Below are positions 2,292 through 2,580 of a stretch of DNA of 64,000 bases, one piece after another. Within the stretch, counting starts at the first letter, position 1. The number at the start of each line of letters is the position of its first letter. A program made the position numbers and the translations under genes. The DNA is from Dictyostelium discoideum. Taxonomy: Eukaryota. Location: assembly GCA_000004695.1 (NCBI GenBank), contig CM000154.2, forward strand, positions 1-64,000, given 5' to 3'. Under the pieces are notes generated by a model. The model was not told the origin of the DNA. It ran no database searches and saw only the letters and a program-made list of their open reading frames with translations.

Positions 2292-2580
2292 TTGAAATGC
2301 ATTTAAAATGCATTTTAAAAAATGTAATTAATAAAAGCTTAAAAAAGGATTAATAAGTAATTTTAAATTACATTAAAAATAACTTTTTTAAATTTATTAT
2401 AAAGTGATTAAAACAGTAGTTAAAAACCGCTTTATAATAAATTTAAAAGGTCATTTTTAATATAATTTTAAATGACCTTAAAAATATCTATAAAATTACC
2501 TTTTTAAAAAGCGCCATTAAAGCCAATTTAAAGCAAATTTAAATTGAATTTGATTTAAATTGGCTTTAAAGGTGCATTTT
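2292..2580. repeat. Cluster of four unrelated short palindromes/inverted repeats within 300 bp.
   Basis: aaatgcattt aaaatgcattt (self-complementary unit x2) at about 2295-2317. gtaattttaaattac at about 2368-2382. aaggtcattt..(20)..aaatgacctt at about 2450-2489. ttaaagccaatttaaa..(25)..tttaaattggctttaa at about 2518-2574. Confidence 0.6.

Follow-up and report, generated by a model that had tools for sequence, protein, structure and literature searches.

The window analysed here is the first 64,000 nucleotides of contig CM000154.2 of Dictyostelium discoideum (assembly GCA_000004695.1), a sequence of ~78% A+T that contains long runs of single nucleotides and, in coding regions, poly-N/Q tracts. 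It opens on an assembly gap of 100 N (positions 1-100), which cuts a zinc-finger gene lying on the minus strand at 101-1635 (511 codons up to the gap, none of them a stop). The next gene, also on the minus strand, occupies 3070-4182 and encodes a protein identical to DDB_G0287215 of D. discoideum AX4. Between the two lies a block of palindromes (2292-2580), separated from the start codon of the zinc-finger gene by a non-coding leader (1636-2261, minus strand) with homopolymer tracts at 2203-2260. This leader is 95-96% identical to that of two copies at one of the related loci described below (L005), and its homopolymer part varies among copies.

A preliminary description of the sequence had listed four dyad-symmetric elements in the block. 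All four were found where it had placed them when we re-read the sequence, but a fifth and stronger one had been overlooked. The first palindrome (2295-2315, z of -2.8) consists of two AAATGCATTT units in tandem. The second, GTAATTTTAAATTAC at 2357-2371, is also the outer arm of a composite palindrome at 2354-2480. The third (2386-2448, z of -8.2) is the one that had been missed; its arms of ~20 nt, TTTTAAATTTATTATAAAG and CTTTATAATAAATTTAAAA, are invariant among copies and its loop is variable. The fourth (2447-2479, z of -4.0) pairs AAGGTCATTT (2447-2456) with AAATGACCTT (2470-2479), and together with the second and the third it is nested in the composite, a 127-nt imperfect palindrome. The fifth (2506-2580, z of -7.1) has 37-nt arms that are 86% complementary. 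The 16-bp arms reported earlier, TTAAAGCCAATTTAAA at 2517-2532 and TTTAAATTGGCTTTAA at 2554-2569, are present but are the perfect core of this larger structure. The palindromes had also been called unrelated in sequence, which is wrong, since TTTAAA is a core common to them. This hexamer occurs 11 times in 2292-2592 (301 bp), while 800 other AT-rich windows of 301 nt average 1.67 (sd 1.45), and no compared window that does not overlap 2292-2592 has more than five.

The region folds far more stably than its composition would lead one to expect. Positions 2280-2600 have a minimum free energy of -85.6 kcal/mol, whereas dinucleotide shuffles average -44 +/- 4 (z of -10.2), and the minus strand gives a z of -9.8 relative to the same kind of shuffles. 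When 1,272 overlapping 300-nt windows of the 64 kb were folded and the effect of GC was regressed out, 2292-2591 was one of only two outliers, the other being 41401-41850, both at a residual z of about -3.7 to -3.9. Each of the arm sequences lacks any second occurrence in the 64 kb, and the window contains no copy of the block itself except low-complexity T-runs. The palindromes are thus not the common motifs of unrelated contexts that the preliminary description had allowed for, and the cluster that it reported is real and non-random. Short AT palindromes are common in such an AT-rich genome, but the idea that the block arose by chance is hardly credible given a z of about -10 on both strands against dinucleotide shuffles, its place at the top of the 1,272 windows, the uniqueness of its arms in the window, and its conservation in seven copies.

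The block is part of a repeat with a precise boundary. In L001 (a gap-free D. discoideum assembly), L002, L004, L005 (two copies), and L006, homology starts exactly at the nucleotide corresponding to window position 2591 and continues with the palindrome block and then the gene; the DNA outside 2591 is unrelated from copy to copy, and homology breaks exactly there. The interval 2292-2580 falls within the conserved block, which reaches slightly further, from about 2262 to 2591. We describe this stretch (2262-2591, minus strand) as a left subterminal repeat region, with TTTAAA-core motifs 11-55 bp apart and ~88-96% conservation in six other copies. Read in the orientation of the gene, the terminus at 2591 is 5'-CACAGCGAAG..., also given as 5'-CACAGCGAAGAAAAATGCACCTTTAAAGCC. 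The terminal 21 bp of the inverted repeat (2571-2591, minus strand; GGTGCATTTTTCTTCGCTGTG on the plus strand, 5'-CACAGCGAAGAAAAATGCACC in the orientation of the element) lie directly outside the perfect core of the fifth palindrome, and in other loci 7 left ends and 2 right ends carry this terminus, with more of them in L007. In total, more than 10 element ends in the related loci start at CACAGC with differing flanks. It had been proposed that co-occurrence of the palindromes with paralogues of the zinc-finger gene would speak for a transposon, and this is what the other loci show: the palindrome arms are found there at element ends only, beside paralogues of the gene, and in unchanged order.

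Several arguments indicate that these repeats are mobile elements of the class II type with terminal inverted repeats. First, a complete element of 5,034 bp was found in L004 (3218-8251), starting with CACAGC... on the left, ending with ...GCTGTG on the right, and flanked by a duplicated TG (TG/TG). Second, there are short derivatives that have both ends in inverted orientation and no gene: one of 761 bp in L005 (581-1341), flanked by TA/TA, and two of 759 bp each in L007 (3043-3801 and 3841-4599), flanked by TT/TT. The complete element and these ~760-bp derivatives have the terminal inverted repeats CACAGC[G/A]A[A/T]GAAAA...CACCTTTAAAG at both ends. Third, the L005 derivative sits in a retrotransposon fragment, an uninterrupted paralogue of which lies 300 bp away. 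The empty site (L005 225-285) reads GTGTTAGTAG and the filled one GTGTTA[CACAGC...GCTGTG]TAGTAG, hence a duplication of 2 bp (TA). Shared termini, terminal inverted repeats, and target-site duplications with an empty site are thus all present. The 2-bp duplication rests on four insertions (TG, TA, TT, TT) and this one empty site; truncation or nesting has deprived several left ends of a duplication partner that could be recognised. In the window, the TA flanking the terminus (2592-2593) is a candidate half of such a duplication, the other end of this copy being missing. Two other types of element were considered and rejected. TA flanks the window copy and one short derivative, which brought Tc1/mariner elements to mind, but TG and TT are found at other insertions and the transposase motifs described below are of the CMC type, not DD34-37E/D. 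Helitrons were set aside on account of the inverted termini and duplications.

The shared boundary could in principle be that of a segmental duplication within a subtelomeric gene family, the palindromes being conserved intergenic or recombination-prone DNA. All copies are in rearranged and repeat-rich regions at chromosome ends, and two of them are directly in tandem. Furthermore, L003, from another strain, has entirely different DNA from window position 3054 outward, i.e., it lacks the whole region, which reflects structural instability of the region and not a clean excision. Yet transposition is signalled by termini that are exact and inverted, by four insertions with 2-bp duplications, by the empty site, and by gene-less derivatives that keep nothing but the two ends, and together these make a segmental duplication a highly improbable explanation.

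What the different ends have in common is the motif more than the palindromes. The left ends, the right end of the L004 element, and both ends of the short derivative share ~30 terminal bp and no fixed sequence beyond. Inward of these, every end is a TTTAAA-core array, be it left, right, or that of a gene-less element. For example, the units ACCTTTAAAATT and TGACCTTTAAAA recur every 12 bp, or units of 11 and 12 bp alternate, and the resulting TTTAAA spacing of 11-12 bp in the repetitive stretches is approximately one helical turn. In the full-length L004 copy, the right end contains an array of the 10-mer of the fourth palindrome, one every 12 bp. Since TTTAAA is its own reverse complement, the arrays are inherently self-complementary; the L004 right end and the whole short element are so as well (z of -8.7 and -8.4, respectively, against shuffles). 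The discrete palindromes arise in the left end of autonomous copies, where units of opposite orientation meet by chance. Their arrangement differs among left ends, right ends, and short derivatives, while the motif and the general self-complementarity are kept. Because the arrangement is not conserved among the types of ends, the palindromes as such may have no role.

The substitutions among copies fit this picture. We compared six left-end copies, one of them from D. cf. discoideum with ~84-88% identity, and found substitutions in 5.5% of the cells of arm columns versus 11.8% of those of loop columns. Across these six copies there is no compensatory change inside the hairpins, and most substitutions break pairs; two cells that seemed compensatory belong to a long-range helix that runs across the boundary of the element and is spurious. 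Judging from sequence comparison, it is the sequence of the motif that seems to be conserved, as one would expect of protein-binding sites, and not an RNA or DNA secondary structure. By analogy with better-known elements, the TTTAAA arrays are putative binding sites of the transposase, with its zinc fingers as the candidate readers. In the transposons of the En/Spm group, the subterminal arrays consist of 12-mers bound by TnpA, short motifs present in both orientations, and the subterminal arrays of short motifs described here likewise occur in both orientations. TnpA binds subterminal repeats that overlap the promoter, and the palindromes could similarly be cis-regulatory sites (promoter or repressor sites) for the transposase gene, instead of or beside a role in transposition. 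The palindromes are 650-950 bp upstream of the ATG (1635), and no other non-coding stretch separates the end from the gene; their dyad symmetry is typical of the sites of dimeric DNA-binding proteins, and their arms are better conserved than their loops. We nevertheless consider this reading unlikely: arrays of the same motif also lie on the downstream side of the genes, at the right end, and make up the two ends of the gene-less 760-bp derivatives, where there is nothing to regulate, and the ATG is distant by D. discoideum standards.

The same conservation pattern bears on the proposal that the block is a structured non-coding RNA, which we did not find upheld. In its most specific form, the block would be transcribed, e.g., on the plus strand from the T-rich tract at 2203-2260, into a hairpin RNA giving miRNA-like molecules or siRNAs. 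There is a precedent for small RNAs derived from transposable elements in this species: the hairpins of thug-S, which like those studied here are inside a DNA transposon, are described as giving miRNAs in D. discoideum (Avesson 2012; Meier 2016, PMC4894637). Stable, almost perfect hairpins of the size of a pre-miRNA are present at 2505-2581 and, on the minus strand, at 2354-2480, and the upstream run of T followed by G resembles the start-site motif of D. discoideum pri-miRNAs (PMC6161686). However, T-runs are ubiquitous in the genome of D. discoideum. A search of the whole window against Rfam at the gathering threshold retrieved tRNA-Lys only. When 1600-3150 was searched at E <= 10, weak, sub-threshold look-alikes of miRNA-precursor models appeared on 2505-2581, but they reflect a generic hairpin shape, and the best of them scores 29.9 bits versus a cut-off of 95. 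Neither the window nor the related loci have a match with up to 3 mismatches to the published miRNAs, miRNA candidates, and primers (Liao 2018, Table S1/S2; Meier 2016, Table 2), and miRNA_can_D3 of thug-S (5p and 3p) is absent from the window, the full-length copy, and all related loci. The miRNAs of Dictyostelium are recognised by discrete 5p/3p reads with a 2-nt overhang and by their dependence on DrnB (PMC6161686). Given these results and the pair-breaking substitutions, with none that compensate, we regard a small-RNA precursor as very unlikely.

The zinc-finger gene has the features of a transposase gene. Two zinc fingers near the N-terminus (1465-1614, minus strand), of the forms C-x2-C-x12-H-x3-H (aa 8-28), which is classical, and C-x2-C-x15-H-x6-C (aa 32-57), presumably make up the DNA-binding domain, and their cysteines and histidines are conserved in the alignment of the family (A2). 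The motifs of the catalytic core lie at 148-702 on the minus strand: LLRIFTD (676-702), GLTMDIPE (439-465), CHTC, or C(2)C (376-393), and DILH (148-165). Two further parts of the signature, H(3)H and the final E, are encoded beyond the gap. The protein completed from L001 has 703 aa and 29 paralogues with 42-95% identity, all of them from D. discoideum or D. cf. discoideum, all annotated as "hypothetical", and none with a Pfam domain. Alignment A2 keeps LLRIFTD, TMDIPE, CHTC, DILH, FHLLLH, and SAE.FE, from which the signature residues D328, D405, CHTC at 425-428, DILH, H595-x3-H599, and E616 can be read. These align to like motifs in distant homologues, so that the catalytic activity is predicted by comparison.

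The distant homologues link the protein to known transposases. A profile search against 1.84 billion representative proteins gave ~50 distant matches beyond the family, in the C-terminal half, with E between 1e-7 and 1e-3. They come from metagenomic contigs and a tick. Among 49 of these proteins, Pfam identified Transposase_21 (tnp2 of En/Spm) in 7 (best E 1.5e-13), DUF1258 in 5, and DUF4218 in 2, P0065 being the sole distant homologue above the gathering score of Transposase_21. Alignment of the family with the distant set by hhalign gave a probability of 99.9% over 414 columns, a comparison that is partly circular since the second set was selected by the first, with the motifs in register (D, D, C(2)C, D..H, H...H...G.P...S...FE). 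Pfam searches with the part of the protein encoded in the window and with the full 703 aa gave no match even at E = 10. An AlphaFold2 model built on a family alignment of 15 sequences (pLDDT 35, too poor for use) has a beta-beta-beta-alpha-beta order around D328 and D405 that is compatible with an RNase H-like fold but unreliable. The placement in a superfamily rests on the remote homologues and the motifs, and on these grounds we consider that the protein is remotely related to the CMC transposases and probably works like them, and do not claim it as a member of a curated family.

The comparison with the CMC (CMCT) superfamily of DDE transposons (CACTA/En-Spm, Mirage, Chapaev) can be extended to the ends. 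The published signature of this group includes 5'-CAC..GTG-3' termini and duplications of 2-5 bp (PMC12730594 and PMC4079192, as they summarise Yuan and Wessler 2011). The element studied here has 5'-CAC...GTG-3' termini and 2-bp duplications, which fall within that range and are like those of Mirage, and its protein conserves the D, D, C(2)C, LH, H(3)H, E signature described for the group. Remote homologues match Transposase_21 and DUF4218, but the protein itself lacks a direct match to the curated model (Transposase_21 / tnp2). Other differences are the TTTAAA core in an extremely AT-rich context and the host, an amoebozoan. Furthermore, no similarity to TnpA was detected in the second ORF of the full-length element, for which Pfam gave no match either. 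The 759-761-bp copies in L005 and L007 resemble MITEs: they keep just the hairpin-prone ends, without transposase, and have like termini and 2-bp duplications. They differ in carrying internal tRNA-like fragments with a B-box-like motif, and the window copy is not of this kind, being a truncated autonomous element. ARAGORN detected no intact tRNA in the related loci, only fragments and B-box-like motifs.

To which family does the element belong? A 2017 review catalogued three families of putative DNA transposons in D. discoideum (Tdd, DDT, and thug) and described Dictyostelium transposases as having no significant similarity to known ones, unlike the remote similarity to the CACTA/tnp2 group found here. 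The DDT family includes DDT-A, DDT-B, and DDT-S (Glockner et al. 2001, as cited in PMC5633606, PMC2665215, and PMC9012585). With DIRS and Skipper, its elements are found in the centromeric regions at chromosome ends, of which they make up ~20% (PMC2665215), and the paralogous loci are likewise all at ~10-90 kb from a contig or chromosome end, among fragments of reverse transcriptases and integrases. The organism is the same, the size is close (5,034 bp versus the 5,471 bp of the DDT-B consensus), and the gene-less form of 760 bp would be in keeping with a "short" member. The published end of chromosome 5 has a TRE5-A.2 located 46 bp upstream of an A/B box, the latter within a DDT-B fragment that has been rearranged (PMC9012585); A/B-box-like tRNA fragments occur within the related copies as well, and the sequence that fills the gap in L001 reproduces the published arrangement of TRE5-A.2 and A/B box. 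The element is thus very probably a member of the DDT family, an assignment for which size, location, and the arrangement in L001 give good but indirect support. The published mapping of DDT-B covers nt 1646-3291, the coding part only, and going by this mapping the coding part of the window gene corresponds to it. Because of this, the palindrome-bearing end may belong to a DDT subfamily other than DDT-B.

The copy in the window has ceased to be an active element. L001 is 99.4% identical to the window over 101-4200 and places the locus 20-33 kb from the start of a 5.29-Mb chromosome. There, the gap is occupied by what remains of the ORF, one end of a second DDT-type element, pieces resembling tRNAs, and a 199-bp tandem array. 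At L001 position 10633, the left end of a related element (CACAGCGGCG...) breaks into the transposase ORF; this element has a palindrome of 170 nt made up of 13-bp units, as well as tRNA-like pieces that include a B-box. The 199-bp array starts at 11120 and is followed by poly(A) and then an ORF. No inverted copy of the left end of the window element is found downstream of the gene in L001, where the ORF is broken by the end of this different, related element. Relative to full-length copies, the window copy stops at L001 10631-10633; ~115 C-terminal residues of the transposase are missing, as are the second ORF and the right end. The 3' third, with the right end, was lost when the related element inserted into the transposase ORF inside the gap. 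Since it has lost these parts, the window copy is a dead, fixed relic that is no longer mobile, and its palindromes are a relic as well.

Our preferred explanation, which we hold with considerable confidence, is therefore that the stretch 2262-2591 forms the left end, terminal and subterminal, of a class II (cut-and-paste) DNA transposon, very probably of the DDT family, whose transposase is encoded by the gene at 101-1635. The preliminary description had offered this among its readings, with the palindromes as subterminal repeats, and it now has strong support: the homology among copies stops at a defined boundary, the termini are inverted, 2 bp are duplicated at insertions, there is one empty site, and the palindromes co-occur with paralogues of the gene; in addition, the motif is enriched, and the protein has remote homologues and conserved signature motifs. 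For intact copies, a mechanism can be proposed by analogy with En/Spm and other elements with terminal inverted repeats. The transposase, with two N-terminal zinc fingers and a DDE core of the CACTA/Mirage/Chapaev type, would bind the motif arrays at both ends as multiple molecules and pair the ends; the DDE core would then cut at the CAC/GTG termini, and the element would reinsert through a cut staggered by 2 bp.

A more far-reaching reading would have the ends, beside binding the transposase, double as a source of small RNAs, as in thug-S: outward transcripts from the T-rich tract would fold into long hairpins and feed DrnB and RNAi, either targeting the element itself or regulating genes. 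In a milder version, the "unclassifiable" DDT would be an unrecognised amoebozoan lineage of CMC elements. We think such proposals have a slim prospect of being right. If the milder one were true, it would describe a DDT lineage with 2-bp duplications and with TTTAAA binding arrays set in helical phase in the repetitive stretches.

Our analysis describes an ordinary and already known kind of element, almost certainly of a catalogued family, in a model genome. The gain for annotation is that the zinc-finger "gene" and the palindromes beside it should be read as a fragment of a dead transposon, and not as a host gene with odd regulation or a new RNA. There are two further, modest gains, neither of which alters the thinking on how such elements work: 1) a protein family, most probably that of the DDT transposase, is tied to CACTA/Mirage/Chapaev by remote homology, termini, and 2-bp duplications; and 2) the TTTAAA arrays found at all ends provide a concrete candidate for the binding site of this transposase.

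Comparison of window positions 101-3054 with positions 7129-13113 of the locus from another D. discoideum strain (L003; assembly GCA_054859385.1) revealed that the two share the neighbouring minus-strand gene DDB_G0287215, and that DNA entirely unrelated to that of the window begins in L003 16 bp past the stop codon of this gene. The other strain lacks the transposon fragment and also the 460 bp separating it from DDB_G0287215; the chromosome end is structurally polymorphic here. Assemblies also differ within the transposase gene: in the gap-free assembly (L001) the ORF carries a frameshift at about codon 97 (8818-8840) that is absent from the AX4 window (approximately 1340-1350), and the full-length copy at another locus (L004) likewise has its transposase split into two ORFs. 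The frameshift and the split ORF could mean that the genes have really decayed, or they could be homopolymer errors introduced by long-read assembly.

In the gap-free assembly, the transposase ORF is broken by one end of another, related element (CACAGCGGCGAAAATCAACACTTTAAAG...; L001 10634-10866), which falls within the assembly gap at window positions 1-100. This second element carries a near-perfect palindrome of 170 nt (z -16) built from about 13 copies of TATACTTAATAAG, and the same module followed by a B-box-like motif was seen again at two other loci, one with another copy (L006) and one with gene-less derivatives (L007). The subterminal repeat design of this sister element differs from that of the element in the window. 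The adjoining sequence (L001 10884-13113) starts with tRNA-like fragments, comprising a 53-bp repeat and a B-box (GGAATCGAACC) at 11010, and continues from 11120 with a 199-bp unit repeated 8.5 times, after which come a poly(A) run of 40 nt and an ORF. This arrangement accounts for the gap at this place in the AX4 assembly. It matches the published TRE5-A.2 insertion at the chromosome 5 end, which lies 46 bp upstream of an A/B box within DDT-B (PMC9012585).

Sequence resembling TRE5 is also found further inside the window, upstream of a tRNA-Lys(UUU) gene (40885-40959): positions 39917-40239 are 88.6% identical to L001 12776-13107, and positions of about 40300-40850 have a higher GC content. 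The region 39917-40959 is the tRNA-targeted retrotransposon arrangement usual in this genome. A 125-nt hairpin (41564-41688) with perfect 31-nt arms (TCACTTTTTTATTTTTTAACGTGGCAGTTAT and its reverse complement) follows the tRNA gene at a distance of around 600 bp and precedes a Rab-like GTPase ORF by about 200 bp. With a DNA fold z of -13, it is the sole structural outlier of the 64 kb besides the palindrome cluster, with which it has no sequence kinship; possible identities are a small inverted-repeat element and a locus for hairpin RNA. In absolute terms, folding energy is lowest in the window at 49900-50550 (-88 to -95 kcal/mol per 300 nt), where G+C reaches 44-48% against 22% in the surroundings; once GC is allowed for, this stretch is no folding outlier.

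The terminal heptamer of the window's element, CACAGCG (2585-2591), is one position off CACAGTG, the heptamer of V(D)J recombination signals. The likeness fits the CAC terminus common to the CMC/Transib/RAG clade and probably means nothing beyond that. Between the two ends of the 760-bp gene-less derivatives sit tRNA-like fragments (L005 745-900; L007 1307 and 4105) in which B-box-like motifs occur (GAGTTCGAAGCC, GATTCGATCCC), and these fragments could attract retrotransposons that target tRNA genes.
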